Source of the DNA: a virus
Lineage: Duplodnaviria; Heunggongvirae; Uroviricota; Caudoviricetes
Direction: 5' to 3' (one strand)
IMG/VR virus record: IMGVR_UViG_2908959467_000003
Coordinates: 1-50,755 of that record
DNA: 50,755 bases
Within the stretch, counting starts at the first letter, position 1, and each line of letters begins with the position of its first letter. A program made the translations under genes and the position numbers. The notes under the pieces are model-generated. The model was not told where the DNA came from, ran no database searches, and saw only the letters and a list, made by a program, of their open reading frames with translations. Positions 1-50,755 of the stretch are shown piece after piece.

Positions 1-1158
1 ATGCTCACCGTTAAGCAGATTGAAGCAGCAAAGCCGAAAGAAAAACCATACCGCCTACTCGATGGTAATGGCCTGTACCTTTATGTCCCTGTATCCGGAA
101 AAAAGGTCTGGCAGCTTCGCTACAAGATTGACGGTAAGGAGAAAATCCTGACCGTCGGAAAATATCCGCTAATGACTTTGCAGGAGGCAAGGGATAAAGC
201 ATGGACCGCGAGGAAAGATATCTCGGTTGGCATCGATCCGGTAAAGGCAAAAAAGGCTTCGTCTAACAACAATTCCTTTAGTGCGATTTACAAGGAATGG
301 TACGAGCACAAGAAGCAAGTCTGGTCAGTAGGCTATGCAACTGAACTTGCAAAAATGTTTGACGACGACATTTTACCTATCATTGGCGGCCTTGAAATTC
401 ATGATATTGAGCCGATGCAACTGCTGGAAGTAATCCGCAGATTTGAAGATCGCGGTGCAATGGAGCGAGCAAATAAAGCCCGCAGAAGATGCGGCGAGGT
501 TTTCCGTTACGCTATTGTCACTGGTAGGGCTAAATATAACCCGGCACCTGACCTTGCTGACGCCATGAAGGGATACCGCAAGAAAAACTTCCCGTTTCTT
601 CCAGCAGACCAGATCCCGGCATTCAACAAAGCACTTGCAACATTTTCAGGAAGTATCGTATCGCTCATTGCGACCAAAGTTTTACGCTACACAGCCCTCA
701 GAACGAAAGAGCTTCGTTCTATGCTATGGAAGAACGTCGATTTTGAAAACAGGATTATCACCATCGACGCCAGTGTGATGAAGGGACGCAAAATTCATGT
801 GGTCCCGATGTCAGACCAGGTGGTTGAACTTCTCACTACGCTAAGCTCCATCACTAAACCAGTATCAGAATTTGTTTTTGCCGGGCGCAACGATAAGAAG
901 AAGCCAATCTGCGAGAACGCGGTGCTACTTGTGATCAAACAAATCGGCTATGAGGGTCTGGAAAGCGGTCACGGATTCAGGCATGAATTCAGCACGATTA
1001 TGAACGAGCACGAATGGCCTTCTGACGCTATTGAAGTGCAACTGGCACATGCCAACGGCGGATCTGTGCGCGGTATTTACAACCATGCTCAGTATCTCGA
1101 TAAGCGCAGAGAAATGATGCAGTGGTGGGCGGATTGGCTTGATGAAAAAACTGAGTGA
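1..1158 (+). CDS. intS: Tyrosine integrase, P4 family (385 aa), IntS-like
   Basis: N-terminal KPYRLLDGNGLYL arm-binding-like region, C-terminal catalytic region (..HGFRHEF..IYNHAQY); recalled similarity to KplE1/CPS-53 IntS. Begins at window position 1. Confidence 0.8.
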   Translation: MLTVKQIEAAKPKEKPYRLLDGNGLYLYVPVSGKKVWQLRYKIDGKEKILTVGKYPLMTLQEARDKAWTARKDISVGIDPVKAKKASSNNNSFSAIYKEWYEHKKQVWSVGYATELAKMFDDDILPIIGGLEIHDIEPMQLLEVIRRFEDRGAMERANKARRRCGEVFRYAIVTGRAKYNPAPDLADAMKGYRKKNFPFLPADQIPAFNKALATFSGSIVSLIATKVLRYTALRTKELRSMLWKNVDFENRIITIDASVMKGRKIHVVPMSDQVVELLTTLSSITKPVSEFVFAGRNDKKKPICENAVLLVIKQIGYEGLESGHGFRHEFSTIMNEHEWPSDAIEVQLAHANGGSVRGIYNHAQYLDKRREMMQWWADWLDEKTE

Positions 1159-1182
1159 CCCACCTTAACAACTATCGAATAG

Positions 1183-1230
1183 CACAAAGCCTTGTAATCA
1201 AGTGCAAGGCTTTGTGTATCCCGTTTTCGC
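1183..1230 (+). terminator. Hairpin terminator downstream of integrase
   Basis: 12-bp inverted repeat CACAAAGCCTTG / CAAGGCTTTGTG (1183..1216) followed by a T-rich tract. Confidence 0.5.
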
Positions 1231-1312
1231 CTAGTTACCACTTCAAAAGTCGATCGGTGGCGATGTCAGTGCTAATATCAGCACAGCAAAAAAGAATGAA
1301 TACGGATGAATA

Positions 1313-3268
1313 ATGAGCTTTCTTTTGAAGACTGACAAAACATTGTCTAAAAATTACCAGCCAGGAGTTGATGGACTCCGTGCTGTTGCCGTCATTTTAG
1401 TTCTTATATTCCATGTAGGGTTCAGTAGTGTTCCAGGAGGGTTTGTTGGCGTTGATGTATTTTTTGTTATTTCTGGTTATCTGATAACTGGAATAATTTT
1501 TAATCAAACTGAGAAGGGAACTTTCAGTTACATTAATTTCATGTTAGCCAGGATAGCAAGACTGTACCCGGCTCTTATAGCAACGCTGATCGCCGTTTTT
1601 GCTGGATGCTTTATTCTGTACTCCCCTTCTGATTTTGTTAGCGTATCTAAATCAGCAATCTATGCTTTGTACTCAGCATCAAATATATTTTTTGCACAAA
1701 GCGTTGGTTATTTCGATACATCATCAGAAATAAATCCATTGTTGCACACATGGTCTCTTGGTGTAGAACAGCAGTTCTATCTTGCATGGCCTCTGATTAT
1801 CGGAGCAGCATATTTAGTAAAAAAGAGCCTTGTGCCATGGGTTCTGGTTATTATTAGTATTGCTTCTCTGGCATCCTCTCAGTGGGCAACTATAAACATG
1901 CAGACTGAAGCGTACTACTGGATGCCGTTCAGGGTTTTTGAGTTGTCTTTCGGCGGACTTGCATTCTTCATTTCTCGATGGATAAAACCATCTGAACTAA
2001 TGAAGGAGTCTATGATGGCTGCGGGACTTGCGATGATAGTATCATCTGCGTTGCTTTACTCATCATCAACTCAGTTCCCTGGTTTGCATGCCATGATTCC
2101 CGTATTGGGTGCCATGCTTTGCATTCTTTCACATGATGCAAAATACGCTGGCTTCGCTGTGAATAACAGGGTCAGCGTTACGATAGGCCTGATATCGTAT
2201 TCAGTTTATCTAATTCACTGGCCTATTATTGTGTTTTACAAATACTGGATATATAGAGAGTTAAATGATATCGAGAAAGCATCATTGATTTTATCTTCGC
2301 TGGCTGTTGGATTCTTAATGTACAACGCAATAGAAAATAAATTCAGAAAGATAAAAATAAATGAGTTTTGCTACAAATCAGTATTGCTTTTATCATTAAC
2401 TATATTGGTTATGATTTCGTATTCATCTTCAATAAAAGACAACGGATTTGCATTTAGAATACAAAATTATAAAGAAAACATGGAAATGCTCAAGCCTGGA
2501 TTTAAAGAATATTTATTCGGAGGCTTTGGGGTTAAGCAAGGTGAAATGGTAGTTCTTGGAGATAAAACCAAAAAGCCATCATTTGTTTTCATGGGTGACA
2601 GTTATGCAAGACAGTATTCATTAGCCATGAGTGAATTTCTTGCAAAGAGAAATCTATCAGCAGCAGCATTTTTCGCTGATGGAGCATATCTATCAAATAG
2701 CGTTTACGTTACAGAAAAAGGGAAGGTTTCTGTATATGGTGTGAAGATAGGAACAAAAGCGATAGATTACTCTAGATATAATAAGATACCACTTGTTTAT
2801 GCACAATCATGGCTTAGGTACATGGGGATGCTATCTGATAAAGATGGTAATGTGTATAAATTCAACGGAGACCATGATTATATGAAATTCAATGCTTCCG
2901 TTATTAACAATATTCAAGAGTACACAAATCAGAAAGTAATTGTTATTGGAAACCACCCGGCAGCAATAGGCTCTGACGGAGGTCTTTCTTGTGTGAGCCG
3001 ACCTTCATATGTTGAAAAGAAATGCATTGATAGTATTTTCAGCACAGAAAGCGGTGATAGGTTAGATAGCAATAATTATTTAAATAAATGGCTATCAGAT
3101 AACGGAAGTATAAAGTTTATAAACCCTTATGATTTCATGTGTAGGAATGGGAGATGTAACCTAGTATCTGACAAAGGTGACGTTATGTATTCTGATGAGT
3201 ATCATCTATCAAGATATGGAGCAAGAAAGGCAATTGAAGGGTTTGGAAATATAATTATCGATATATAA
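1313..3268 (+). CDS. Fused acyltransferase-3 / SGNH-hydrolase membrane protein (651 aa), O-antigen acetyltransferase-like
   Basis: N-terminal multi-TM region with AT3-like motifs (..VDGLRAVAVILV..FFVISGYLITG..), soluble C-terminal domain; AT-rich; sits between int and tailspike where conversion genes are found. Confidence 0.7.
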   Translation: MSFLLKTDKTLSKNYQPGVDGLRAVAVILVLIFHVGFSSVPGGFVGVDVFFVISGYLITGIIFNQTEKGTFSYINFMLARIARLYPALIATLIAVFAGCFILYSPSDFVSVSKSAIYALYSASNIFFAQSVGYFDTSSEINPLLHTWSLGVEQQFYLAWPLIIGAAYLVKKSLVPWVLVIISIASLASSQWATINMQTEAYYWMPFRVFELSFGGLAFFISRWIKPSELMKESMMAAGLAMIVSSALLYSSSTQFPGLHAMIPVLGAMLCILSHDAKYAGFAVNNRVSVTIGLISYSVYLIHWPIIVFYKYWIYRELNDIEKASLILSSLAVGFLMYNAIENKFRKIKINEFCYKSVLLLSLTILVMISYSSSIKDNGFAFRIQNYKENMEMLKPGFKEYLFGGFGVKQGEMVVLGDKTKKPSFVFMGDSYARQYSLAMSEFLAKRNLSAAAFFADGAYLSNSVYVTEKGKVSVYGVKIGTKAIDYSRYNKIPLVYAQSWLRYMGMLSDKDGNVYKFNGDHDYMKFNASVINNIQEYTNQKVIVIGNHPAAIGSDGGLSCVSRPSYVEKKCIDSIFSTESGDRLDSNNYLNKWLSDNGSIKFINPYDFMCRNGRCNLVSDKGDVMYSDEYHLSRYGARKAIEGFGNIIIDI

Positions 3269-3277
3269 TATAAATAA

Positions 3278-3314
3278 TTGTGCGCACTATTTAACTTTTT
3301 CATAGTGCGCACAA
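3278..3314. terminator. Bidirectional hairpin between convergent acyltransferase and tailspike genes
   Basis: 13-bp perfect inverted repeat TTGTGCGCACTAT / ATAGTGCGCACAA with 11-nt loop. Confidence 0.6.
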
Positions 3315-3316
3315 AT

Positions 3317-5473
3317 TTACAGCGTTGGGAAGTTTGTTGATAATGGTACTATTGCATATTCAAGTTTTGTTGGCGGATTATTTGCAGCGCTGTATGTTGA
3401 AAGAGCCTCAAGCACAATATACCCACTCCCGTTGTACCCTGCTTTGAAGCAACTTTGCAGGTTTGCTATGGATGTGTCTCCTGGATTTAACCGCTGATCA
3501 ATGGGTGATTTAAGGTCAGTTGCATCTGCCCTGTCCGTTGCGTCATGCGCACCGGAAGACATGATATAAGTAGCATAATTATTTTTTACACCTCCAGTCA
3601 CTTTTATGTGGAGAAGGTAAAGAGTGCGATCAGATGTAGAACCAGTCAATATCTGTTTATCAAGAGTAATTCGTACCTTTGAGCCATCAGATAACACAGG
3701 TAAAGACTTGCTTAACATTGCTACGCCATTAACAGTATTATCATAACCATTTCCGATATAGTTACCTGAACCTACAAAAGCTGAGTTCATTCGCCAGATA
3801 TCTTCTGCCGTAAATAACCCTGACGTAATGAAGTTACCTGTCCATACGTTTCTGTTTCTTTCTGGTCTTGCATTAAGCACCATTCCAACACCCCCGGCCA
3901 TGAAGTTGCCAGATATAACTGCTCCTGACATATCGGTAGTGTTGATGCATTGGAGTCTTAGGTCTTTGTTAACGCCAGGATCAAGAACCATTTGCATGGT
4001 ATTGCTGTTGATACTAATTCCGGCACACCACATGCCATTAAAACCGTTGTTATTGTTGTTTAACGCCTGTGAAGCGATGAAATTAAATATCCTCTGTTCT
4101 GAAGGATTTGTAGCACCTTTATAGTAGAAAACATTATTAGATATGCTAACAAGTGAGGTGCGCAAGAATATCGCAAAGTCATTTAACGGGTTTTCTTCAA
4201 AATGAAATACGTTGTTCGATATAGAAGATCTGCCACCTAATCCGACGCGAGTGCTGCTATCAAATTGCAATGACATCATCTTAATAGCAGTGTTAACAAA
4301 ACGGTTTGATGTTAAAGATACTTCAAGGCCGCCGGTAAAAGTATCAAATTCACATGCGCATTCCGTATTCCTGTTGAAGAAAAGATTGCCGTTAACATTC
4401 CCACCTACGGTAGCGCCACCAATTTTACCTAAGTCAGAGTTAGCTCCACTCTGCATAAAAACATCAAAGGTGTTATTCGTTACATGGAACATTGACTTGC
4501 GAGGCGTTCCAATGTCGACTGATGCAGTCGTGTTGCCAAGAATCATCAGATATGGATATACCTCACCCTGTTCACCTGACATTCCTGCATCAGAGATATA
4601 CTGATCTGTGTTGTCATCAGTCTTGCAGTAGTTATTATCAACTGAGATATGTACGCTGGTTGGGTCCTGACAGTTAACCATGATGTAGCCAACACCGCAG
4701 TTAAAGCATTGCATATCTTTTATCACCACTCGCGTTGGCAAATTCGCCAGCCCATCAGGGTAATCATTGAAAATTACCTGAGGACGCTGGGTGTGGTATG
4801 CATTTGCGGTGAACTTACCGCCGATAATCTCTACTGATTTTGCGCCAAGCGGATGGAAAATATAATCAATGCCATTGAAGGTAAATTCTCCAGTAGAAGC
4901 ATCGATAATGATGTCTCCTGGGATGGTGACGGGGGCCGTTACATCGTACACACCTGATGCTACAACTCTCGTTTTGTTTGCAACCGCATAATTTACAGCT
5001 GCCTGTAATTTTTCTGACGCATTACTTCCGGGGAATACCTCGGGGACAACCCATTTGATGGCATCCTGTACCGTGCCATATGGCATAATCCCAACAAGAC
5101 CAGCGCCGTCTTGATTAGAAAGCCTAATCTCAAATTGATCAGGGTCGTACTTCAGCACATTAGGGAAATAGAACTGCTGTGATCCATATGCATCGTACAC
5201 AGACATAGAATGACCTTGCACAGTTACAAACTTGGCAATCTGTCCGTTATATACCGGATATCCAGCAGCATTAATGATGATTGGTTGCGAAACAGGAACG
5301 TGAGAGCCATCTTCGTTCTCTACATAAACCTGAATCTGGTTTTCTGGATTTACGGGGTCCGTGTCAATTTTACCGATATAAATTTTGCCATTGGCAACCG
5401 CTTTAAAAGAACGCGCCATAGTGAAAAGTTGCGAAGGCATCGATACGATCACATTGGCTGTAATGTCTGTCAT
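3317..5473 (-). CDS. Tailspike protein (718 aa), P22 gp9-type head-binding domain with divergent receptor-binding domain
   Basis: N-terminus MTDITANVIVSMPSQLFTMARSFKAVANGKIYIGKIDTDPVNP.. matches the recalled P22 tailspike head-binding domain; remainder is G/N-rich beta-helix-like and unlike P22. Confidence 0.85.
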   Translation of the reverse strand: MTDITANVIVSMPSQLFTMARSFKAVANGKIYIGKIDTDPVNPENQIQVYVENEDGSHVPVSQPIIINAAGYPVYNGQIAKFVTVQGHSMSVYDAYGSQQFYFPNVLKYDPDQFEIRLSNQDGAGLVGIMPYGTVQDAIKWVVPEVFPGSNASEKLQAAVNYAVANKTRVVASGVYDVTAPVTIPGDIIIDASTGEFTFNGIDYIFHPLGAKSVEIIGGKFTANAYHTQRPQVIFNDYPDGLANLPTRVVIKDMQCFNCGVGYIMVNCQDPTSVHISVDNNYCKTDDNTDQYISDAGMSGEQGEVYPYLMILGNTTASVDIGTPRKSMFHVTNNTFDVFMQSGANSDLGKIGGATVGGNVNGNLFFNRNTECACEFDTFTGGLEVSLTSNRFVNTAIKMMSLQFDSSTRVGLGGRSSISNNVFHFEENPLNDFAIFLRTSLVSISNNVFYYKGATNPSEQRIFNFIASQALNNNNNGFNGMWCAGISINSNTMQMVLDPGVNKDLRLQCINTTDMSGAVISGNFMAGGVGMVLNARPERNRNVWTGNFITSGLFTAEDIWRMNSAFVGSGNYIGNGYDNTVNGVAMLSKSLPVLSDGSKVRITLDKQILTGSTSDRTLYLLHIKVTGGVKNNYATYIMSSGAHDATDRADATDLKSPIDQRLNPGDTSIANLQSCFKAGYNGSGYIVLEALSTYSAANNPPTKLEYAIVPLSTNFPTL

Positions 5474-5608
5474 TTAATTTGCTCCAGATACAAGGAATCG
5501 CCGCAGCGTGGCTACGGTTGGTGTTTGTTGCATACCGAAACGGTACGATTGTTGATTTGTACAGTAGGTTTTACGATGCCATTCCACCCAACTGGTGAGG
5601 CATCAAGG

Positions 5609-5869
5609 ATGTACAGCAAATACGACGAGGCGCAGTTTCACTTGAGACTTCCGCATGAACTTCACGCGAAAATTAAGCAGCGTGCGAAGATGAATAACAG
5701 GTCGCTGAACTCAGAGATAATTGCAGCGATTGAAGAATCATTGGCTAAACAAAGCTCTGCATCCGGTTACATTGACGATGCAGAGCGTATGGCAGAACAA
5801 CAATCCGATATGGTAAAGAAAATTGTCTTTGATACGCTCAAAGAGCTATATAAAAAAGACAGCAGCTAA
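5609..5869 (+). CDS. mnt: Mnt-like ribbon-helix-helix repressor (86 aa)
   Basis: MYSKYDEAQFHLRLPHELHAKIKQRAKMNNRSLNSEII.. resembles P22 Mnt; ATG at 5609 preceded by GGTGAGG. The longer track ORF from 5210 is an upstream extension. Confidence 0.7.
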   Translation: MYSKYDEAQFHLRLPHELHAKIKQRAKMNNRSLNSEIIAAIEESLAKQSSASGYIDDAERMAEQQSDMVKKIVFDTLKELYKKDSS

Positions 5870-40220: not shown

Positions 40221-40380
40221 TGAACACTTCTCACTAAGTCCAATTAATTCCATAACTCACTGTTTTAACTGATATCATCTCCTTATACTCGTCCAGCAAA
40301 GTACCATTATTTCTAATGGAATCTATACATCTTTGCGTATAACATTGTGTATAACTGAGTTCGATCTTTTTTCTATACAC

Positions 40381-41556
40381 ATGCTGCTATCTGACATCCA
40401 AATAAAAAGAGCAAAACCGAAGGACAAACCCTATACGCTTAACGATGGTATGGGGCTATCACTCCTGATCGACACAGCGGGCAGTAAAGGCTGGCGTTTT
40501 CGCTATCGCTTTGCAGGTAAGCCTAAGATGATTTCCTTTGGCGTATATGGCGATGTGTCGTTGGCACAGGCACGTACCAAACGTGATGAAGCGCGTTCGA
40601 TGTTAGCCAAAGGGATAAACCCAAGTGAAGCCAGAAAAGCAGATAAGATTGCTTTGCAGTTCGCGCATGAGAACAGCTTTGAGTCTGTGGCCAGAGAATG
40701 GCACTCATCGAAAAAAGCCACCTGGTCAGAGGGTTATGCAAAAGAGGTTCTCAATTGTATGGAAAAGGATATTTTTCCTTTTATCGGCCAGCGCCCAATT
40801 GAGCAGATTGAACCATTAGAACTGCTAACCGTCCTGCAAAAAATAGAGAAAAGAGGTGCGCTAGAGCAAACCAGTAAGATCCGCCGCCGCTGTGGTGAAG
40901 TGCTTCGTTATGCTGTTGCCACTGGTAGAGCAAAGTATAATTTTGCACCCGATTTAGCTATCGCACTCAACAAACCTAAAACCCAACACTTCCCGTTCCT
41001 GACTGAAAGCGAGTTGCCCGAGTTCGTTAATGCTCTGGATAACTATCAGGGCAGTTTAGTTACCAAATACGCCACGCAGCTGTTGATGCTAACAGGCGTG
41101 CGAACAATTGAACTACGTGCAGCGGAATGGGCTGAGTTTGATTTAGATAATGCCTTATGGGAGATCCCCAAAGAACGGATGAAGAAACGCCGCCCCCATC
41201 TGGTTCCGTTATCAACTCAGGCGATCAATATCCTGAAAAAGCTGCAAGAAATAACAGGGAATTACAGCCTCGTTTTCCCTGGCCGAAATGACGTCAGGAA
41301 ACCAATGAGCGAAGCCAGCATCAACAAAGTGATAAAACTACTGGGTTATCACGGTCGGTTAACGGGTCACGGTTTCAGGCATACCATGAGCACCATCTTG
41401 CATGAGCATGGGTTTGAAAGTGCCTGGATTGAAATGCAGCTTGCGCATGTTGATAAGAACTCTATTCGAGGTACTTACAATCATGCGCAATATATTAAAG
41501 ATCGACAAGTAATGATGGAATGGTACGCTAGCTTATTAAATACGACCTGCTATTAA
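40381..41556 (+). CDS. Tyrosine integrase, P4 family (391 aa)
   Basis: MLLSDIQIKRAKPKDKPYTLNDGMGL.., ..RRRCGEVLRYAVATGRAKYNFAPDLA.., ..HGFRHTMST..; paralogous to the int at 1..1158. Confidence 0.85.
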   Translation: MLLSDIQIKRAKPKDKPYTLNDGMGLSLLIDTAGSKGWRFRYRFAGKPKMISFGVYGDVSLAQARTKRDEARSMLAKGINPSEARKADKIALQFAHENSFESVAREWHSSKKATWSEGYAKEVLNCMEKDIFPFIGQRPIEQIEPLELLTVLQKIEKRGALEQTSKIRRRCGEVLRYAVATGRAKYNFAPDLAIALNKPKTQHFPFLTESELPEFVNALDNYQGSLVTKYATQLLMLTGVRTIELRAAEWAEFDLDNALWEIPKERMKKRRPHLVPLSTQAINILKKLQEITGNYSLVFPGRNDVRKPMSEASINKVIKLLGYHGRLTGHGFRHTMSTILHEHGFESAWIEMQLAHVDKNSIRGTYNHAQYIKDRQVMMEWYASLLNTTCY

Positions 41557-42486
41557 ATCCAGCATGAAACAAATATGGTGAGTAATTTGATACTGTTTGT
41601 TTTTTGGCAACCCAGGGAAATGCCTTACAGTTGGTTGACTATTGTAATAATAATAGTTAAGACCAATGTTGCTGCCAAACTGGGTTGGATGTTGGGGAAC
41701 AAGATTTGTAATTTGATCTGAAACATCTAAAAATTTTGCAGTAACATTTGAACTTCCTCGTTGCGTGTTGCTTGATACAAAATGACGAATCCAAACTGTA
41801 TTCGCTTGTAAATTCTTGAACACCAAATGTGCGGCAACAGCAGAAGGTTGACCACCTCCAAGATCTAGTACCTGGCCAGTAATTGTATAATCGCCAAATC
41901 CTAAGTAATTTTGTCCCACGAATTGATGTGCGTGCGTGAAAAGTTCCGGCCCATTATAATCAGCATTTTTTGCTAACTTTCTAAAGTTATCGCTAATAAT
42001 AATTAACTTCGACAAAGGAAGAAGAGCGCACTGATTAGGAAGCATTTTATTATTTAAAACAACATGATAACTAATCAATTGATTTGTCGCCAACAACTGA
42101 ATATCAGAGTTGGATAATGATGGATTATCATATAGAAGTGCAACTCGTCTATTTAAGTTAGCATTCAACCAATTATTAATATCATTAATCGTTGTATTGG
42201 GCTGAATAAGATATCCAGAGATGATATTGTTTTTATTTGTTAATACACTTGATAAATTTTGATTTAAAGTTAAGACGTTATTGTGTGAAGAAAAATCTTC
42301 CTGATAAGGATTAAGGATAACAATTATGTCAGAATTCCAAACATTTAAACATGTTAATAAATTTCTCGTATTGACGTTAATTGGTTCTAAAATTGGTAGC
42401 AGACCATTTAGGCTAACTCCCTTCGCAACGAGGTCCCTAAGGCATAATAACTCTGTACTTCTCGCATACAAATATGGGCTATACAT
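41536..42486 (-). CDS. Cargo protein B (316 aa), unknown function; second gene of an AT-rich two-gene operon
   Basis: N/S/L-rich low-GC ORF, 21 nt after gene A; no recognised motif; 3' end overlaps the convergent int by 21 bp. Confidence 0.6.
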   Translation of the reverse strand: MYSPYLYARSTELLCLRDLVAKGVSLNGLLPILEPINVNTRNLLTCLNVWNSDIIVILNPYQEDFSSHNNVLTLNQNLSSVLTNKNNIISGYLIQPNTTINDINNWLNANLNRRVALLYDNPSLSNSDIQLLATNQLISYHVVLNNKMLPNQCALLPLSKLIIISDNFRKLAKNADYNGPELFTHAHQFVGQNYLGFGDYTITGQVLDLGGGQPSAVAAHLVFKNLQANTVWIRHFVSSNTQRGSSNVTAKFLDVSDQITNLVPQHPTQFGSNIGLNYYYYNSQPTVRHFPGLPKNKQYQITHHICFMLDLIAGRI

Positions 42487-42507
42487 AACTTACAACTCCT
42501 GAGGATA

Positions 42508-43389
42508 TCAACAAATTTTAATTTTTACATCCATCAAATTCATGATGAATTCTTTTTGCTTTCTTGATAATGGTGTTGCATAACCTAAAACACGTAAACA
42601 TGCTGGAAGAGAATAAATATAATCCAAAAAAACTTTGTCGTTACATCTTTTTTTCATAGCAGAGATAAAGTATTTATTTGCTATGTTTAATGGCATCTGC
42701 ATGAATATCTCTTTACAATATTCATAAACCAATCCATTAGGCATATTTATTTTAGTTGAAGTGTAATCTTCTATTATAGCTAAGAACTCTTCCTTTCTAA
42801 GAACTGAAAACAAGCTGTCACTTTTAATATAATCAATATTTGAATCTGCCTCCTTAATGACACTCAATTGATCTTTTTTATTCAAAACCATAACTCCCAC
42901 TCTGGGGAGATTTAAAGCACAATATTTACTTGCATACTCTGGATGTGTAACTATATACACTTTATCAAAAACATCCAAATAATCAGGGGCTTGAGTAATC
43001 AACCTTTTTGGTGAATCATACTCTGTCTTAATCTCGTAAGCTGTAGACGTACCATTAAACACCGCAACATCCACTATAGAGTTTTTAATTGGTAACTCTA
43101 TGGACGACGAACTTGTTTTTGGGCTGTGCTTACCGAATATTATTTTATTGACAAGTGCTGTCTTATAAACATATTCATTTCTATAATTCAGACGCAAAAA
43201 ATCATATAATGATGTAAATAAATCCCTTAGTGAAATCTCATGTTCATTATTATCATTGTTTGAAAACAGTGTTTCATAGCAGTAAGAATCAAAACTCCCA
43301 AATAAATCCGAAATATCCTTACCTTTTGCTAAGGATGAAAAAATGGGGCGACGGAAAAATTTAGCATATTCCTTTTTATTATGACTCAT
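42508..43389 (-). CDS. Cargo protein A (293 aa), putative PD-(D/E)xK nuclease-fold protein
   Basis: ..SIELPIKNSIVDVAVFNGTSTAYEIKTEYD.. gives the E / hydrophobic-D / E-x-K arrangement; AT-rich. Confidence 0.6.
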   Translation of the reverse strand: MSHNKKEYAKFFRRPIFSSLAKGKDISDLFGSFDSYCYETLFSNNDNNEHEISLRDLFTSLYDFLRLNYRNEYVYKTALVNKIIFGKHSPKTSSSSIELPIKNSIVDVAVFNGTSTAYEIKTEYDSPKRLITQAPDYLDVFDKVYIVTHPEYASKYCALNLPRVGVMVLNKKDQLSVIKEADSNIDYIKSDSLFSVLRKEEFLAIIEDYTSTKINMPNGLVYEYCKEIFMQMPLNIANKYFISAMKKRCNDKVFLDYIYSLPACLRVLGYATPLSRKQKEFIMNLMDVKIKIC

Positions 43390-44069
43390 TACTCATACTC
43401 TATAAACATCATGCAATTTGATAAGTTATGACGAATTCTCACCATCCAGTTACTACCTGTACATACTAATCAAAAAAAACGAGTACGCAAGATACGAAAG
43501 TACTTTTCTTGTTCACCAGTTAGCTTACCTTGATCCTCACCAGCGACTGGAAGATAGGTAGCAGTATATGTGGAAACCTTCCCCTAGCTAGGTCTACAAA
43601 CGTAGTTTGGGCATTTAGGCTCCACGATTCACGGTTTGACACGGCCTGATATCTGCACATTCGTTTTGATATGCAGCAATCGTGAAAAAGGGAAAATATA
43701 CGCTCGACAGACCAAAACGGCACTACACCGCACCCGCCTGCGGTTTTCATATCACTAAAAATTTTCAGCCTGGATTTTTTACAAACGATACCGCCAGTCC
43801 GTGCCAGTCCTCGAGATGTACTGCGATACAGGAACTGAAAAGAATGAAAAGAAATTCATTTTTTTTCAGTTTTACTGTCCGTCGAATCTATGGCCTGAAT
43901 ACGCAACTCTATGATATTAAATGGATAATTAATTTTAGGTGTGTGATTTTATGAAGGTTTGTGAAACATGAAGAAGATAACCAGTTGAAAAATAATAATT
44001 TTATGACCGTATAAACTGAAATCCTGTGTTCAGGTTCCGGGAACAGATCGGCCATTCCCGACGCATACT

Positions 44070-44342
44070 TTACCCATTCTTTTGCGCAGCCAGCAGCAAC
44101 TTTAAAGCCTTTTCCCGTTCCTCGGGTGGAATTGCATCAATCAGCTCTTTAACCCTTCCCTGCCCGTTCAGCGCGCTTGGACTAACGGAATGGGAGAAAG
44201 CAACATTCATCACAAACGAGTGACCGCACTCCACATTAGAGCAATAGCAGTACACATCGTACAGTTGTGGGTGTTTCCTGTTTGTTTTACCTATCCGTGC
44301 TACTGCCTGACATGTGGGGCAGTACATTCTCATCATCTTCAT
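44070..44342 (-). CDS. ogr: Ogr/Delta-family zinc-finger late-gene activator (90 aa; start may be an internal Met)
   Basis: C-x2-C...C-x4-C pattern (MYCPTCQ..CYCSNVEC) as in P2 Ogr / P4 Delta. Confidence 0.7.
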   Translation of the reverse strand: MKMMRMYCPTCQAVARIGKTNRKHPQLYDVYCYCSNVECGHSFVMNVAFSHSVSPSALNGQGRVKELIDAIPPEEREKALKLLLAAQKNG

Positions 44343-44408
44343 CGTTCTGTGCCCTATACTGTTGCCCGCCAGAAGAAGGGATTTGGATCCCTACCTCTTG
44401 TTCTGAAC

Positions 44409-44598
44409 GTGTAACACTGGTAACACGTGTAACGCTATTGATTTAAAAGGATTTAATCTGTTACCAGTTAGCAAAATCAAGAGGTAACGCGTGGTAACAC
44501 ACCATTTTTTGTTACCTCTGTTACCAGTCAGTATTTTTGACTGGTAACACTGAAGAACCGCATCAGTAACGGGTGTTACCTCTGTTACCAGTGTTACC
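44409..44598. repeat. Iteron cluster: at least 12 copies of (G)GTAACAC / GTGTTACC in about 190 bp, P4 crr/ori-like
   Basis: Repeats read directly; motif TGTTACC is one base from the recalled P4 alpha-binding octamer TGTTCACC. Confidence 0.65.
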
Positions 44599-44624
44599 TC
44601 ATAAAAATAAGACTCACGCGATAA

Positions 44625-47312
44625 TCACTCAGGTTCAGCGCTTCCCAGTACCTGTGTATTGAACTGGTACACACGTTTAAGCCCTATTTCTGGCAGGCGA
44701 ATGCTGTTTTGCGTCCGGCCATCTTCACCGGGTTTCAGCCAGCCCGCGTCCACACACAACCTGGCCACCTTACGCGAGTCAAATCCCTTACAGATCTCCT
44801 TCCAGCCTGACGGGAGAACGTAGAACGTCACAACCGGCTCTGTCACGTTGTCTCCTTTATCGACTTTTCTGAATCCCATCATTGAAACAGGCCGGTTCCT
44901 GTCGTCATTCCAGTCAGCAAACCGACTGAACTGATTACGCGTCATGAAGTCCCGAACCTGTTCAAGTGCCGCTTTATCTTCCTGATTAGCTGTATGGCCC
45001 CGGTCAGCCATCCATGCAGCCAGACAGCTTTGAGCGGCACGAAAGGCCTCTCCCTCCGGCCATCCTGTGATGCCCGCTTTTGTGGCCAGCTCCCCGGCCA
45101 TCGCAACCAGAGCAAAACGGGTAACAGCCCGGCCAACCTGATTCCCGGCATTTTCCGGCGTCAGCCTTCGGGTATACTCTTTCAATAAGGCTTTCGCCTG
45201 ACTGGTCAGTTCCGGCAGATCAGCGGTCAGGCAATACAGCCAGTCGCGGAATGGTGCACCATGATAATGCGCTACGTGCTGCTCAAGATGCTCAGCCAGG
45301 GTTTTCCCGCTACTGAAGCCATGAAGTTCTTCAAACACGCCATACTTGCCCGAATCGCTTGGGATCTGGATCATTCTGACCTCAACCCCGGCATACGTAC
45401 GTTCCCCGGCGCTTGCCGCATGCTCTACCAGTGACAGTTCCCCGGTAGACAGAAACAACAGATTCCAGCGGTTGGTTTCCCTTACCGAACCATCTGTTCT
45501 GGCTCTGGCTTTGCCCTGCCCGTTAGCCAGCATATAAGCGATATTCCCCGCCTCCCTGCCGTCAACCTCCCGGATTTCATCCAGCATCAGCGTGGCATCA
45601 TTGCGGCGGCTCGCCGTTCCTTCTAAGGCATTCCCCGTCGCCCGCCACGTATGCCAGAAATCTGTTCCACCACATACTGATGCAGCCACTTTCATCGTCG
45701 TGGTTTTACCGTCTGTGGATTCCCCTTTGAGGTGATAACCTCCACCGCCGATACCAACCAGTTTCAGAAGGGGGGCAGCAAATGCCAGACTCACCGCAAA
45801 GGCAAGACGGGCATTCTTTATGCAATAACGGCCTATATTTTCACGCCAGCCCTCTGATGTGCCGCTGACACGAAAATCACGCCCCTGCACACTCGATGTT
45901 TGTAAGATGACTGACTGGGCTTCGCGCCCTATCACTTCATCCTGGAGAACGTAAACCCCGCCGTGCCAGCCAGTTTTATTCACACAGGTTACTTTTCTGT
46001 CCGGTTTACACAGCGAGATATATTCCATCAGGAATGCTCTGGCCATGCCATTAATGTTGATGTAAGAAAGCCCGTTAACCAGCAGAACGCGGCGCAGTTC
46101 TTCCCCGCTACCGCCCAGCATCTCCATCGGCATTGCCCATTTACGGCTGTTTCCGTTGGTATCTTCCCATTCCAGCAAACGCCCGTAATTACTTCCATCA
46201 GCATCACTGGTGATTGCCGTCACCCGCAACGGACTGCAAATTTTGATATTACGTATCTCTGTATCACCATCAGACTTATTAACCAGCTTGTCGTACCACA
46301 AATATTCTTTTGTCAGCCGGAACCCTTCTGGTAAACGGGTCTGCCCTTTGCCATGCAGCGTCATTTCTTCACGAAAGGCATCTCTCGCCCGTTCTTTCCC
46401 CACTTCCTGCCGATAATCATCCCAGTCAGCCTTATGGCGTACCGGAGGGAGCGTTACCCAGCCATCCACCGCTTTGGCGGCTTTCTCTGCCTGAATACGC
46501 CCGGTGTTTTCTTTGCCGTCAGCCAGATCATTATCTCCGGCCAGAATGATCCGAGTTTCCGGCCAGCGTTTTCGGATCTGCTCCGTCACCTTCAGTAAAT
46601 TGGTGGCAGCGACAGCCGCCACGATCCATCCTTCAGTCAGCAGACTGACGGTAAGCGCCGTGGCAAAACCCTCAGTGATAATCACCTGTTCAGGTGTTTC
46701 AGCGGGTATATCGGTCAGGGCAATGAATGCGCCAGACAGCTGGCTACCGGGCAGCAGACTTTTATCCCCGTCAGGATTGATAAGCTGGCCACCAGTAATA
46801 TTCCCGGAAATATCCGTCAAAGGCAGCAGTAATGAACCGGTGGAAAATGTTATTCCGGCCAGATTCAAAGGCTGTGACAGCAAGGGAAGTGAATACCCGT
46901 GTAAGCCCTTATTTGTCAGATAGACCGGCTCACCATTGCAGGACTGCTGTCTGAGTCTGGTATATCGCTCCGCGCCCGCTTCTTTTCCTGCGGCCTTTTT
47001 CCTGGCTGGCAATGCGGGCTTCTCCTGTATTTCTGGTAATGCAAGCGCCTCAGATACCATCCCGGCGACTTCTTTTATCTTTCTTCCTGTCACCAGACGA
47101 ACCAGATCAAGACCATCGCCATGACCGCACTGATTACAAAACCACGTCCCTCGCCCCGCTTTATCGTCCAGTCGAAAACGATCTTTTCCACCACAGGCAG
47201 GGCAAGCCCCATGATGTCCTGCGGACGGTACTTTAATACCTAATGCTGACAGGATATAAGGCCAGCGCCCAATTGCAGCTCCGGAAATCGTGGATACAGA
47301 CGGTGTTTTCAC
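44625..47312 (-). CDS. Primase-helicase, P4 alpha-type (895 aa)
   Basis: N-terminal zinc-binding primase motif (CPACGGKDRFRLDD..WFCNQCGHGDG), central P-loop (GESTDGKTTT). Confidence 0.85.
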   Translation of the reverse strand: MKTPSVSTISGAAIGRWPYILSALGIKVPSAGHHGACPACGGKDRFRLDDKAGRGTWFCNQCGHGDGLDLVRLVTGRKIKEVAGMVSEALALPEIQEKPALPARKKAAGKEAGAERYTRLRQQSCNGEPVYLTNKGLHGYSLPLLSQPLNLAGITFSTGSLLLPLTDISGNITGGQLINPDGDKSLLPGSQLSGAFIALTDIPAETPEQVIITEGFATALTVSLLTEGWIVAAVAATNLLKVTEQIRKRWPETRIILAGDNDLADGKENTGRIQAEKAAKAVDGWVTLPPVRHKADWDDYRQEVGKERARDAFREEMTLHGKGQTRLPEGFRLTKEYLWYDKLVNKSDGDTEIRNIKICSPLRVTAITSDADGSNYGRLLEWEDTNGNSRKWAMPMEMLGGSGEELRRVLLVNGLSYININGMARAFLMEYISLCKPDRKVTCVNKTGWHGGVYVLQDEVIGREAQSVILQTSSVQGRDFRVSGTSEGWRENIGRYCIKNARLAFAVSLAFAAPLLKLVGIGGGGYHLKGESTDGKTTTMKVAASVCGGTDFWHTWRATGNALEGTASRRNDATLMLDEIREVDGREAGNIAYMLANGQGKARARTDGSVRETNRWNLLFLSTGELSLVEHAASAGERTYAGVEVRMIQIPSDSGKYGVFEELHGFSSGKTLAEHLEQHVAHYHGAPFRDWLYCLTADLPELTSQAKALLKEYTRRLTPENAGNQVGRAVTRFALVAMAGELATKAGITGWPEGEAFRAAQSCLAAWMADRGHTANQEDKAALEQVRDFMTRNQFSRFADWNDDRNRPVSMMGFRKVDKGDNVTEPVVTFYVLPSGWKEICKGFDSRKVARLCVDAGWLKPGEDGRTQNSIRLPEIGLKRVYQFNTQVLGSAEPE

Positions 47313-47719
47313 AGCAGCACCTCCTGACCTTCCGGCTTCACAAATTCAAAACCTTCGGGTAGTTCGCCATCAGGTGCTCCGAAAATAATATCCCGGTAAA
47401 CCTCACGCATCTCTGTGACACCAAAAACTGACAGGCGAATATTTTCTGACATAAAGCCTGGTTTAAGCATTTTTTCCAGTTTCTCTGCGGCCAGTATGCA
47501 ACCAGCATCAGCCCCAAACTCATTCACCCACGGCATTTCAATATGGTAAATAATATTACTCACCACTTTTTCGTGGGAGAGTTCTATTCGTTCGCCATCT
47601 TCAATATAAACAGGTTCATTATGAACACGCACCATTAAGGAAATGAATGCATCAGCAATGTAGTAGCGTAAGACTGCTGTTCGTAAAGCATGCGCCTTTA
47701 AATTTTGATTATTATTCAT
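47309..47719 (-). CDS. Hypothetical protein (136 aa) upstream of the primase
   Basis: Overlaps primase start; position analogous to P4 epsilon/orf151. Confidence 0.45.
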   Translation of the reverse strand: MNNNQNLKAHALRTAVLRYYIADAFISLMVRVHNEPVYIEDGERIELSHEKVVSNIIYHIEMPWVNEFGADAGCILAAEKLEKMLKPGFMSENIRLSVFGVTEMREVYRDIIFGAPDGELPEGFEFVKPEGQEVLL

Positions 47720-47948
47720 CGCGCATCACTCCCTTAATTGTGCTGGTTTCCTTAACAACGCCATCCAGTTGTTCGGCAATACAGGCCACTAAAGCCGCAG
47801 CGCCTTCCGCTGAAACAGTTCTCGCTCCATTCACTGTGGGCACGGACAAGACCTCTGCAAGAAACTCACTGGCCAGTGCCGCCCGTAACAGACGACTCTC
47901 CCCCTGTTCACTCAATATGCAGCCTTGCTTAAAATTCATGGATTTCAT
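47712..47948 (-). CDS. Hypothetical protein (78 aa)
   Basis: Operon member; no motif. Confidence 0.4.
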   Translation of the reverse strand: MKSMNFKQGCILSEQGESRLLRAALASEFLAEVLSVPTVNGARTVSAEGAAALVACIAEQLDGVVKETSTIKGVMRDE

Positions 47949-48148
47949 GCAACCACCTCCCCGGCTCTTTTCACAGGGATACGGGCAGCAAAGCTCAGGA
48001 TAAATTCAGTGGCAAGTTTAAGGCGTGCAGCATGCTCGCATTCTGCGATTACACGCACAGGGCGTGGACGGGCATCACGGTCTGTACGGCGGACAGCCAG
48101 AAAGACAAAGGTAAATTCAGGGTGAGATAAAGCAGGGACTGTAGCCAT
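47945..48148 (-). CDS. Small hypothetical protein (67 aa), first gene of the alpha operon
   Basis: ATG at 48148 with GAAGGAGG RBS; the longer track ORF to 48535 is an unsupported extension. Confidence 0.4.
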   Translation of the reverse strand: MATVPALSHPEFTFVFLAVRRTDRDARPRPVRVIAECEHAARLKLATEFILSFAARIPVKRAGEVVA

Positions 48149-48160
48149 AATGGCAACCTC

Positions 48161-48425
48161 CTTCAGATAGCGGGTAACGCTACCACCGGAGTTCCTACGC
48201 TCATGGGTGGTAGCCCAGACGGGGGTAGGAATACCGGCTCTGAAGGATACCGGCCAGCCCGAAAGCTGCCCCGCCTGGACTACCATAATTCTGATGATGT
48301 GGCGTAAAAAATAAAAAAATACAATCAGCCACCACACCATAAATTTTAGGTGAGTCAAAGCTGCGACACAAAAAAACACGCCTGGCGCGTGTAGTATCGC
48401 CTTCAGATAACACGGGTTCCTACGC
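48161..48425 (-). promoter_or_regulatory. Candidate RNA immunity region (P4 seqA/cI/seqC-like) with internal terminator
   Basis: Two direct copies of CTTCAGATA..GTTCCTACGC (48401..48425, 48161..48200) flank a reverse-complement copy (48225..48247); hairpin + U7 at 48370..48392. Confidence 0.4.
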
Positions 48426-48577
48426 CCGGCTGCCGATTTTGCGGCAACCTTTAAACTATATCCCGCGCATTCCTGGTGAGGCAAGAAATTTATAACCGAA
48501 AACTGATCATTGCCTGGATTAATTAACGCTGGCATGCTTAAGCCTCTGCTTAAAAATAGTTCTTCATTTTTCCTGAT

Positions 48578-48608
48578 GCTGTAAACGAGACCCGCCTCTG
48601 AGCGGGTC
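48578..48608 (-). terminator. Hairpin terminator after capsid-like gene
   Basis: Minus-strand GACCCGC-UCAGAG-GCGGGUC followed by UCGUUUAC. Confidence 0.45.
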
Positions 48609-48622
48609 TTTCTGTCGCTAAG

Positions 48623-49627
48623 TCAATCCGCAAACGTCAGGGCGCTCTCATCGACAGCCGCGTACAGTTCAGGTTCACCGAGTGCATAACCTTCATTGCG
48701 CAGGTAGGAATGCACGTATTCACTGCTTTCATCATCAAACTCAGCACGAAACCAGCGTGTTATCGCCTGAGTGTAAATATGCAGATTATCCAGCGTCGTT
48801 ACTGCCAGACGCTTACCCGGCATAAACGGGGGAATAAACGCAAAGCGGCCAGCAACAGAACTTGTAGCCATCTGTGCCGCATTCACATCAGACGGGCGGT
48901 CTGCGGCATTAAATAACTTCAGGCGTTGATGTGCTGCCAGCTCTGCCCCAACCAGTACAACCAGACGAGGATCTTCACGAAACTGCTCAGCAATAAGCTC
49001 TGTAATCAGATGGTTGGCCAGAGCATCAATATTTTTCCAGGTGCCAGTCTCTCCCAGAGTGACAGGCTCAGAGATGATTTGCTTTCCGTTCCCGTAGGCT
49101 TTCGCCAGTGCATGCCAGCCAATATTGACATCCTCGCCTTTTTTATTGATTTCCGGGTTTGTAGTATTTGCAATCGACACACCATTGAAACCGACCCGCA
49201 GCATGTCCAGCGCATATGCCTGGGCAAAAAAGCTCTCAACCGTTTTCTCAAACTCATCCGGCACGCCGGTATGGTAAATATGAGACATATCGGAATAGCT
49301 GATCCGGGCGCAGGTATCCGTCTCTGTCAGAAAGAACTCCGTACCATTGATTGCCATTTTTTTGTGGAAACGGCCACCATCCACACGTCCGGTATACAGT
49401 TCACTGGCACCAATATTGACGGCATTACCTGACACGGCGTTAACATCACGTAGGGTAATATTTTTAATAAGCCACCCGGATTCCAGAATTGAGGTACGCA
49501 GTATATTTTCAGTAGGTTCGCTTAATGCAAAGCGTCTGTTTGATTCTTCCTGATAGTTAGTGCCAGTGACGAATTTATTATGATAACGACGTGCTGCGTC
49601 CGGCCTTTCAGTTTTGAAGGCATACAT
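48623..49627 (-). CDS. P2 gpN-family major capsid-like protein (334 aa)
   Basis: Blocks alignable to recalled P2 gpN (GFNGV, ..IGW.., DALANHLITELIAEQFREDPRLVVLVG, LDNLHIY); from memory, unverified. Confidence 0.5.
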   Translation of the reverse strand: MYAFKTERPDAARRYHNKFVTGTNYQEESNRRFALSEPTENILRTSILESGWLIKNITLRDVNAVSGNAVNIGASELYTGRVDGGRFHKKMAINGTEFFLTETDTCARISYSDMSHIYHTGVPDEFEKTVESFFAQAYALDMLRVGFNGVSIANTTNPEINKKGEDVNIGWHALAKAYGNGKQIISEPVTLGETGTWKNIDALANHLITELIAEQFREDPRLVVLVGAELAAHQRLKLFNAADRPSDVNAAQMATSSVAGRFAFIPPFMPGKRLAVTTLDNLHIYTQAITRWFRAEFDDESSEYVHSYLRNEGYALGEPELYAAVDESALTFAD

Positions 49628-49649
49628 AGTTTTTCACCTTTTTAAGTAT

Positions 49650-50510
49650 TTAAGAAAAGATTTTATTTTTGTACTCAGTAACCAGATTGTATTTCATTAC
49701 ATGCTCAACATAATCCCGGTCACTTACGACTGAACGTAATACATAATTATCTGCTCGATAGTACTCCCTGTAAGCCATAGCTCTTGCCATTCCACCGTTA
49801 TTTAATACATAACGATCAGTTGGAACGCTACAACGACTAATAATTTCACTCACGGAATCAGATAAAGACTTGAGTGCATCAGTAATAAATTTAATATCAC
49901 GGACAACGTCACTGTCATTAAATACAGAAATAAAATCAGCAGGGATCTGGCCGGATTGAGGAAATATATTCAGTAAACGCTTATCGATTCCCTTCCCAAT
50001 GTAGTTTCCTTCATCGGCCAGTACTCCCGGCAAAAGCTTGATCGTGCTCAATCGACTATGTTGTTCATTCAACCGGGAAACAGCCAGATGGTAATACCGT
50101 TCAGCATCCGCTCGTTCAGCATGCCCCATTTTATTCGTTTTGGCTTCAGCAATGCTACTGACGCCGTTTTTTGAGAATGTGCTTTTCCATGCAACTTCCG
50201 CATTTGTCACTTCACGCTGCCGGAAAGATAACTCTTCCTCTTCCTGACGACACAACTGGGCATAACGGCTCAGGAGCAGGTTGATCTCATTCGCCACAGT
50301 TTCCGTATCAGGTACTGTTAACCCCGTAAGTGAATACAGCTTTTCACCTTTAGCTCGCAGCTTATTCAGTGAATATATTTCAATAATACGCACAATACAG
50401 GCCGTGTCGCTATGAGTCTCTTTAAATGATCTTACTTTGTAACTATCTAACACCGACACATGTTCGTTCTTAATTGATGCCAATTTCTTCTTAAAAACAT
50501 TGTCAACCAT
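49650..50510 (-). CDS. Hypothetical protein (286 aa), AT-rich, unknown function
   Basis: Low-GC ORF between AlpA and the capsid-like gene; no recognised motif. Confidence 0.5.
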   Translation of the reverse strand: MVDNVFKKKLASIKNEHVSVLDSYKVRSFKETHSDTACIVRIIEIYSLNKLRAKGEKLYSLTGLTVPDTETVANEINLLLSRYAQLCRQEEEELSFRQREVTNAEVAWKSTFSKNGVSSIAEAKTNKMGHAERADAERYYHLAVSRLNEQHSRLSTIKLLPGVLADEGNYIGKGIDKRLLNIFPQSGQIPADFISVFNDSDVVRDIKFITDALKSLSDSVSEIISRCSVPTDRYVLNNGGMARAMAYREYYRADNYVLRSVVSDRDYVEHVMKYNLVTEYKNKIFS

Positions 50511-50527
50511 ATATTTGCCACCTCAAT

Positions 50528-50755
50528 TTAGGAGTTTAATTTTCTATTGAGAATATTCTTCTCTATCCATTCATTAACTTCATGCTCCACCCATGCAACA
50601 GAACGAGAACCGATAGAAACTTGGTTCGGAAATTCATCATTCTTTATCTTTAGATAAATTGTTGACTTGGGTAAGCCAGTCAAATTAATCACTTCTGATA
50701 TTCTCAGAAGTCTATATCTTTTTTGGGGTGCGTTTTCCCGAGGCAATAAGCTCAT
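50528..50755 (-). CDS. alpA: AlpA-family transcriptional regulator (75 aa)
   Basis: ..RLLRISEVINLTGLPKSTIYLKIKNDEFPNQVSIGSRSVAWVEHEVNEWI matches the AlpA HTH signature; start codon is the last 3 nt of the window. Confidence 0.75.
   Translation of the reverse strand: MSLLPRENAPQKRYRLLRISEVINLTGLPKSTIYLKIKNDEFPNQVSIGSRSVAWVEHEVNEWIEKNILNRKLNS

Follow-up and report, generated by a model that had tools for sequence, protein, structure and literature searches.

We analysed a stretch of 50,755 nt of viral DNA (Caudoviricetes; IMG/VR record IMGVR_UViG_2908959467_000003), hereafter the window, and focused on the acyltransferase gene that lies between the integrase and tailspike genes of the P22/Sf6-like prophage it contains. 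This gene very probably encodes a lysogenic-conversion enzyme, an O-antigen O-acyltransferase (most likely an O-acetyltransferase) of the OafA/OafB type, in which an AT3 membrane domain is fused to an SGNH domain. We are less sure of the specific substrate, for which we favour the O153/O178 O-antigen with a confidence only somewhat above even. The donor, the acceptor sugar and an exclusion phenotype are what we infer from homology and linkage. The gene is of an already recognised, ordinary kind of phage conversion gene and is not a new class of system; the useful details that it adds are (i) a breakpoint within the gene, (ii) co-exchange with the distal half of the tailspike, and (iii) an association with O153/O178.

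The gene is an intact open reading frame (ORF) of 651 amino acids (aa) with an ATG start. Its features are as follows:

1313..3268, + strand: AT3-SGNH acyltransferase gene (ORF, Pfam, PHROG 6705 and AF2 model)
1364..2314, + strand: AT3 membrane domain, aa 18-334 (Pfam; residues aligned with BTP1 OafB)
2372..2437, + strand: predicted 11th transmembrane helix (TMH), aa 354-375 (AF2 helix; hydropathy peak at aa 352-374)
2549..3232, + strand: SGNH domain, aa 413-640 (Pfam, 6SE1 profile match and Foldseek)

The first-pass annotation, made from the sequence without database searches, had proposed a 651-aa fusion of these two domains. In a profile search both were found far above their cutoffs: PF01757 Acyl_transf_3 at aa 18-334 (E=5e-32, 111.6 bits against a cutoff of 31) and PF19040, SGNH (fused to AT3 domains), at aa 413-640 (E=1e-24, 87.9 bits against a cutoff of 27). 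The AT3 domain contains R23-x10-H34, GGFVGVD (42-48), FFVISG (50-55), R80xxR83, S123-N124 and HTWSL (145-149), with E341 just beyond its end, and the SGNH domain contains GDS (428-430), D628-x-x-H631 (DEYH) and the cysteine pairs 560/571 and 610/615. We aligned 37 homologues with 35-99% identity. R23, H34, G42-G43, D48, F50-G55, R80, R83, P86, N124, H145-L149, E152, E341, G428-D429-S430, D628, H631 and the four cysteines are invariant among them, and S123 is kept in at least 90%. The protein also matches the full length of PHROG 6705, 'O-antigen acetylase' (moron/host takeover), over positions 5-636 of 647 (E=3e-141). Members of this PHROG include phages Tyrion, PAS61, SPC32H and 66FD, and the closest phage-record member is only about 31% identical to the window protein.

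Structural comparison points to the same family. A phmmer search of PDB sequences with the single protein gave no match, and the 37-sequence profile was needed to reach 6SE1, the periplasmic domain of OafB; this is the sole PDB sequence match of the family profile (E=4e-5), with GDS and DxxH aligned. The AF2 model (pLDDT 89.1, pTM 0.75) shows a membrane domain built of helices, a further helix at aa 354-375 and a C-terminal domain of alpha/beta type, which the predicted 11th helix would put in the periplasm. When the model was compared with the PDB by Foldseek, 6SE1 was again the top match (E=1.4e-6, TM (target) 0.61, 250 columns); a Campylobacter GDSL esterase and the PatB peptidoglycan O-acetyltransferases (PatB E 4e-4 to 3e-3) came at lower ranks. 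Every testable sequence and fold feature of the OafA/OafB-type AT3-SGNH family is present in the protein.

Homology to OafA, OafB and Oac had been put forward as a check on the first-pass annotation; it is seen in alignments with OafB and Oac and in the motifs of OafA. OafB (formerly family II GtrC; BTP1, S. Paratyphi A; 6SE1) has the same AT3-SGNH architecture in 640 aa, and BTP1 GtrC/OafB aligns with the window protein along its whole length (28% identity, E=4e-58), every motif falling in register. OafA of Salmonella Typhimurium is the abequose 2-O-acetyltransferase responsible for the O:5 factor. OafA mutants in R14, H25, D39, R69, R72, S112, S412 or H590 retain <1% of wild-type activity, and mutants in F35, E325 or D587 retain <50% (PMC7448272). 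By motif and through OafB, we mapped the first set to R23, H34, D48, R80, R83, S123, S430 and H631 of the window protein, and the second to F44, E341 and D628. These residues include the R/K-x10-H of TMH1, the RxxR of TMH3 and the Ser-Asp-His triad, as well as three traits peculiar to the fused proteins: the GG-F/Y-xGV-D loop, a serine between TMH3 and TMH4, and a glutamate following TMH10. The GxND motif of block III is missing in the window protein, OafA and OafB alike, which makes for an atypical oxyanion hole. OafA differs in its cysteine pairs (383/397, 439/453 and 567/572), and its gene lies away from any tailspike, unlike the window gene. Sf6 Oac (OacA) is 28% identical to the window protein over 215 aa, and has 333 aa with the AT3 domain only; with 651 aa and an SGNH domain, the window protein falls outside the Sf6 Oac/OacA-D class (~330 aa, AT3 only).

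No nucleotide (nt) match to the gene was found among 50,697 phage records. Two clonal mouse strains, M9 and M6, were its sole carriers in a set of 5,426 complete E. coli genomes (96.9% nt identity). At the protein level, it falls in a 90%-identity cluster of 108 members, mostly full length, whose representative is 99% identical to it. The named members that we examined come from E. coli and one Citrobacter, and are labelled only 'acyltransferase'.

The gene lies among the following features:

1..1158, + strand: IntS-type tyrosine integrase (int), 385 aa, at the left end of the prophage (Pfam Arm-DNA-bind_3, Phage_int_M and Phage_integrase)
1182..1217, + strand: hairpin after the int stop codon, with a 15-bp stem and dG -23.5, then TATCCCGTTTTC (RNA folding)
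1218..1312, + strand: conserved leader of the acyltransferase gene, 95 bp (locus comparison and motifs)
3278..3314, no strand assigned: hairpin between the convergent stop codons, with a perfect GC-rich stem of 13 bp (RNA folding)
3317..5473, - strand: tailspike, 718 aa (Pfam)

Integrase (+), acyltransferase (+) and convergent tailspike (-) follow one another in this order, and ORFs and Pfam matches on both neighbours confirm the placement that had been read from the sequence. The first-pass annotation had further described this locus as the slot in which P22-like phages keep serotype-conversion genes; indeed, Sf6 has oac there and BTP1 has gtrC/oafB. In Sf6, on a related backbone, int is followed by a putative oac promoter, oac, a terminator and the convergent tailspike; Sf6 int is 94-96% nt identical to the window int, and the int-oac spacer is unrelated to the window leader. 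In BTP1 (P22-like), gtrC(oafB) is convergent with the tailspike gene at a distance of 39 bp, as in the window layout, where the two stop codons are 48 bp apart. In BTP1, a gtrA remnant and a hypothetical gene separate gtrC from int; the window gene comes directly after int. The acyltransferase gene is AT-rich, as had been noticed (GC 36.9% and GC3 33.0%, against 48.3% and 48.6% for the rest of the prophage), and GC falls at about 2250, within the gene. Such foreign composition is typical of morons. Together with its position between int and the tailspike, the hairpin and the conserved leader, it gives the gene the features of a tailspike-adjacent P22-like conversion (moron) module.

We asked whether the acyltransferase travels with a particular type of tailspike. 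The window tailspike has three parts: a head-binding adaptor (aa 1-113; 5135-5473), a shared mid-part (aa ~121-325) and a variable C-terminal part (aa ~326-718; 3317-4497). Its PDB sequence matches are limited to the N-terminus and end at about residue 142; the receptor-binding part is therefore not P22/Sf6-like, in line with the first-pass statement that it differs from that of P22. We retrieved seven loci with acyltransferase homologues of 42-66% identity from E. coli, E. marmotae, Enterobacter and run-level assemblies. In each of the seven, the homologue converges on a tailspike or tail-fibre gene 27-65 bp away, and the backbones are of at least three kinds (P22-like Head_binding, Tail_spike_N, and a Phage_tail_beta type beside a lysis cassette). 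Across loci, acyltransferase identity tracks receptor-binding-domain identity: paired values are 100/98, 97/95, 66/78 and 68/49%, and the 100/98% pair occurs on two N-terminal adaptors and two backbones (loci L009 and L011). Below about 58% acyltransferase identity, the tailspikes share at most ~120 residues at 21-30% and usually give no BLASTP match. The window's own pairing recurs in two IMG/VR viral contigs, one of them with yet another tailspike N-terminus.

A comparison with the allele of a P0002-type prophage, which is 66% identical overall, revealed two further features:

2213..2362, + strand: recombination breakpoint at aa ~300-350, the end of TMH10 (sliding identity)
2260..4500, no strand assigned: mosaic block of the SGNH half of the gene, the hairpin and the C-terminal half of the tailspike gene (nt comparison with the P0002-type prophage)

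Identity to the P0002 allele is 96-100% over aa 1-300, falls across aa 301-350 and is 18-52% thereafter; by domain, it is 99% for AT3, 31% for TMH11 plus linker and 32% for SGNH. In all other homologues the two domains decay together. The left breakpoint coincides with the drop in GC at about 2250. The block at ~2260-4500 is flanked on both sides by 98-100% nt identity, covering the leader and AT3 half on the left and the tailspike mid-part and adaptor on the right, and the P0002 locus occupies the same argW-intS slot as the window prophage. One AT3 domain is thus paired with two SGNH types, each of which goes with its own type of tailspike C-terminus. Both SGNH types also occur in variants of 656-657 aa that start differently (MSKHIK...), and the domain boundary has therefore recombined repeatedly. 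In the published scheme, the donor is the business of AT3, and the choice of acceptor falls to SGNH together with its extension (PMC7448272). A breakpoint at the AT3/SGNH junction fits this scheme, and couples specificity for the acceptor to the distal tailspike half. We tentatively propose, with rather less than even confidence, that the SGNH half and the tailspike distal half form one glycan-specificity cassette (~2260-4500) exchanged via breakpoints inside both genes, so that receptor recognition and modification are co-inherited while the AT3 half and tailspike base stay constant.

The tailspike gene next to the P0002 allele (locus L006, 8019-10862; E. coli GCA_019859985.1) encodes 947 aa, with an extra C-terminal GDSL/SGNH esterase domain at aa 715-947. 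Its adaptor and mid-part are 96-99.5% aa identical to those of the window tailspike, and its C-terminal part is 61% identical. The combination of such a tailspike with a neighbouring acyltransferase suggests that O-acetyl groups of one and the same O-antigen are being dealt with. Such an esterase could counter O-acetyl exclusion on O153/O178, in an arms race between related prophages.

The window contains no host O-antigen locus, and we turned to other carriers of the module for the likely serogroup. E. coli M9 (NZ_CP010196.1) has the same module, with 97% aa identity for the acyltransferase and 95% for the tailspike. Its wzx and wzy genes are of the O153/O178 family, and a gnu-type epimerase gene adjoins galF; such a gene has been used to infer GalNAc-initiated O178 (E. 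coli O-antigen review, PMC7685785). Beyond the M9/M6 clone, a related receptor-binding domain (77% nt) occurs in complete genomes only of the O178:H19 strain 2012C-4431 and two more strains. In all, the tailspike family is present in 5 of the 5,426 complete E. coli genomes, and all 5 are among the 15 in which a search with M9 wzy found an O153/O178 wzy (hypergeometric P = 8e-14, or 3e-11 with the M6/M9 clone counted once; both values ignore clonal structure). The confinement of this tailspike family to hosts of O153/O178 genotype favours an O-antigen receptor over polymers that are almost universal, colanic acid among them. In the sources consulted, the O153/O178 repeat unit is Hex2HexNAc2Pent with ribofuranose. 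BTP1/Salmonella OafB acts on a rhamnose-containing unit, whereas the glycan for the window enzyme is probably this ribofuranose-containing one. The first-pass annotation had suggested that the phage both recognises and then modifies a specific O-antigen; co-variation with the tailspike receptor-binding domain, the single recombination block and the restriction to O153/O178 all support this idea.

In strain 2012C-4431, the same slot holds a 335-aa gene annotated only 'acyltransferase' (locus L017, 3559-4566), without significant similarity to the window protein (E=0.46); the slot therefore accepts unrelated acyltransferases. The tailspike of this strain is 91% aa identical to the window tailspike in its mid-part and 59% in its C-terminal part. 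Counting this strain, three variants of the window's tailspike type come with at least three different acyltransferases.

By analogy with the characterised enzymes, we propose the following sequence of events. The ten-helix AT3 domain would take an acyl group from cytoplasmic acetyl-CoA via R23/H34 (TMH1) and R80/R83 (TMH3), and would pass it across the inner membrane. The 11th helix would hold the SGNH domain on the periplasmic side, and the Ser430-Asp628-His631 triad there may pass the group on to a sugar hydroxyl of the O-antigen. In the lysogen, the gene probably relies on its own conserved leader for expression, with the hairpin that it shares with the tailspike insulating it from the late operon. 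The modified glycan would be the one recognised by the phage's own tailspike, most likely the O153/O178 O-antigen. Modification would alter the serological epitope and would cut cleavage or adsorption by the same or related tailspikes, resulting in superinfection exclusion. The precedents for both effects are Sf6 Oac and BTP1 OafB, which protect against their carrier phage; acetylation by Oac blocks Sf6's own endorhamnosidase (PMC9558356).

Several points weigh against this proposal. Identity to the characterised enzymes is low, at the 28% given above for BTP1 OafB and for 215 aa of Sf6 Oac, and no experiment ties the window protein, or any phage-record relative above 31% identity, to a defined product. 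The putative leader promoter is only a motif match. The serogroup test ignores clonal relatedness, and the link to O153/O178 comes from E. coli M9/M6 and from tailspike relatives, not from the window's own host. The sources consulted on the O153/O178 repeat unit mention no O-acetyl group, and the predicted modification would therefore be unreported. Finally, over aa 1-646 the tailspike has a match (E=3e-108) to phrog_8280, whose label reads 'tail spike protein with colonic acid degradation activity' (that is, colanic).

We weighed four other explanations. An unlikely one, although the best of them, is that the O-antigen is indeed modified, but to create or tune a receptor for this or a partner phage, or mainly for evasion of host immunity or serum. 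The pairing of the alternative SGNH allele with an esterase-domain tailspike suggests that tailspikes must handle, or even use, acetyl groups, and O-acetylation is an immunodominant epitope in Salmonella (PMC9558356). In Sf6 and BTP1, however, where Oac and OafB have the same layout, acetylation hinders the phage's own tailspike; nothing in the sequence separates these roles from exclusion.

More improbable is an acceptor in another envelope glycan: colanic acid, K capsule, enterobacterial common antigen (ECA), lipopolysaccharide (LPS) core, or peptidoglycan, as for enzymes like OatA and PatB. AT3-SGNH proteins do modify many substrates (PMC9558356), and PatB proteins are the next-best fold matches. 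Sequence and fold nevertheless both rank the LPS enzyme OafB first and not PatB, and with the family profile no other solved SGNH domain, the OatA and PatB chains included, reached E<=1. The protein does not, on these grounds, belong with the peptidoglycan O-acetyltransferases. For colanic acid there is the label of phrog_8280, a distantly related tailspike family; the match extends past the N-terminal domain and scores ~90-110 bits above most adaptor-only tailspike matches in the table. We rejected colanic acid as the main target on the restriction of the tailspike to O153/O178-genotype hosts, since nearly all E. coli possess loci for colanic acid and ECA, and M9 itself has a full wca cluster. 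The slot, moreover, is that of the proven O-antigen acetylases of Sf6 and BTP1.

It is very unlikely that the enzyme transfers an acyl group other than acetyl, such as succinyl in the case of mycobacterial SucT. AT3 proteins include succinyl and other acyl transferases (PMC9558356), and the sole NCBIfam match is NF058601, acetyltransferase SucT (E=1e-38). We rejected this match because its 132.9 bits compare with a cutoff of 1275 and it covers the generic AT3 part only, and the characterised enzymes that come closest in fold and layout are acetyltransferases. Least likely of all is silent or decaying cargo without present function: the gene is foreign in composition, a promoter scan found no consensus site and the M9 copy sits in a prophage that lost its integrase, but the ORF is intact with all catalytic residues kept, even in that int-less prophage, the 108-member cluster is mostly full length and the leader is conserved across alleles.

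Phage-encoded O-antigen acetylation alters serotype, vaccine epitopes and phage susceptibility. If our assignment as an O-antigen acetyltransferase is true, the allele would give the O153/O178 group, to which Shiga-toxin-producing O178:H19 belongs, an O-acetyl variant not reported before, and the predicted signature is +42 Da on the Hex2HexNAc2Pent repeat. The breakpoint at the AT3/SGNH junction lends natural-history support to the published model of two steps, acyl transport by AT3 and choice of the acceptor by SGNH. It also suggests that the type of the neighbouring tailspike might predict the acceptor specificity of uncharacterised AT3-SGNH enzymes.

We examined the leader for signs of independent expression. 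The window, the P0002 locus and E. coli M9 share it almost unchanged. At 1270-1278 lies a candidate extended -10, TGCTAATAT, while a consensus scan found no sigma-70 promoter on the + strand of the leader. A five-codon mini-ORF, MNTDE* (1296-1313), has a stop that overlaps the acyltransferase start (TAATG) and is conserved with the leader in sister loci; translational coupling or a leader function is possible. Dam-dependent phase-variation regions upstream of gtr/oafB genes carry several GATC sites, and OxyR is involved in their control. The window leader differs from these OafB-type regulatory regions: a 154-bp leader has one GATC only (1252), and without paired sites it does not group with the phase-variable gtr/oafB (Dam/OxyR) loci. 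Phase-variation signature sequences lie upstream of oafB genes (PMC9558356).

The first-pass annotation had described a strong bidirectional hairpin between the acyltransferase and tailspike genes. The hairpin at 3278-3314 is strong, with arms TTGTGCGCACTAT/ATAGTGCGCACAA, an 11-nt loop, dG -19.3 kcal/mol and z = -5.1, and none of 200 shuffles folded as well. Its action in both directions stands only in part: a convincing U-rich tail, UUAUUUAUAUUAUAUAU, follows the stem on the tailspike (-) strand, and the + strand has only AUUUACA. A consensus terminator scan did not flag it, because the loop exceeds 8 nt. The hairpin probably acts as a terminator, for which the tailspike transcript has the clearer U-tract, and bidirectional action is a reasonable inference. 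A GC-rich hairpin is also found in the 27-65 bp gap of every related module, and the Sf6 equivalent is annotated as the oac terminator.

Beyond the module, the receptor-binding part of the tailspike (window 3317-5140) is 92% aa identical to the 'tail fibers protein' of siphovirus vB_EcoS_swi2, and no other phage record matched. The similarity suggests that a temperate podovirus and a siphovirus have exchanged a receptor-binding domain. We found no host-receptor data in the literature on phage swi2.

The window element is an integrated, full-length P22/Sf6-like E. coli prophage of ~40.2 kb. Its int is 94-97% nt identical to the int genes of Sf6, HK620 and CUS-3; the window from 5.5 to 40.2 kb matches IME10, HK633, HF4s and others at 95-98%; and genes for portal, terminase, coat, scaffold, ejection proteins, cI and replication are present up to a right end at ~40,221. 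Identical or sister copies sit at yfdC-tRNA-Arg-intS, which we take to be the argW integration site used by Sf6. The hairpin at 1182-1217 is likely the int terminator, and ~60 bp after intS are conserved in 445 other E. coli genomes. An attP just 3' of int was first suggested by the M9 copy, which abuts torT; we dropped it because the Sf6 annotation puts attP upstream of int and the ~60 bp are the intS terminator region. The E. coli M9/M6 copy, in which int is reduced to an 84-nt 3' remnant (locus L001, 7916-7999) and which adjoins torT and not argW, is apparently rearranged and immobilised; its acyltransferase and tailspike genes are still intact. Searches with Rfam over 1000-5700 (E<=0.1) and with PADLOC gave no match.

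Two other elements were observed nearby. A short Arc/Mnt-like ribbon-helix-helix ORF at ~5600-5869 (+), upstream of the tailspike, is probably the remnant of a P22 immI-type region. Its M9 counterpart is annotated 'Arc family DNA-binding protein', and the P0002 locus carries a full ant/arc/mnt set where the window has this lone ORF. Directly after the right end of the prophage comes a second mobile element (40333-50755). It encodes a separate integrase (40333-41556) and carries sce7725/sce7726 genes, a P2-family capsid gene and a DUF927 primase-like gene; elements in ST131 and other E. coli match it at 99.5% identity. It resembles a P4-like satellite that stands in tandem with the prophage.

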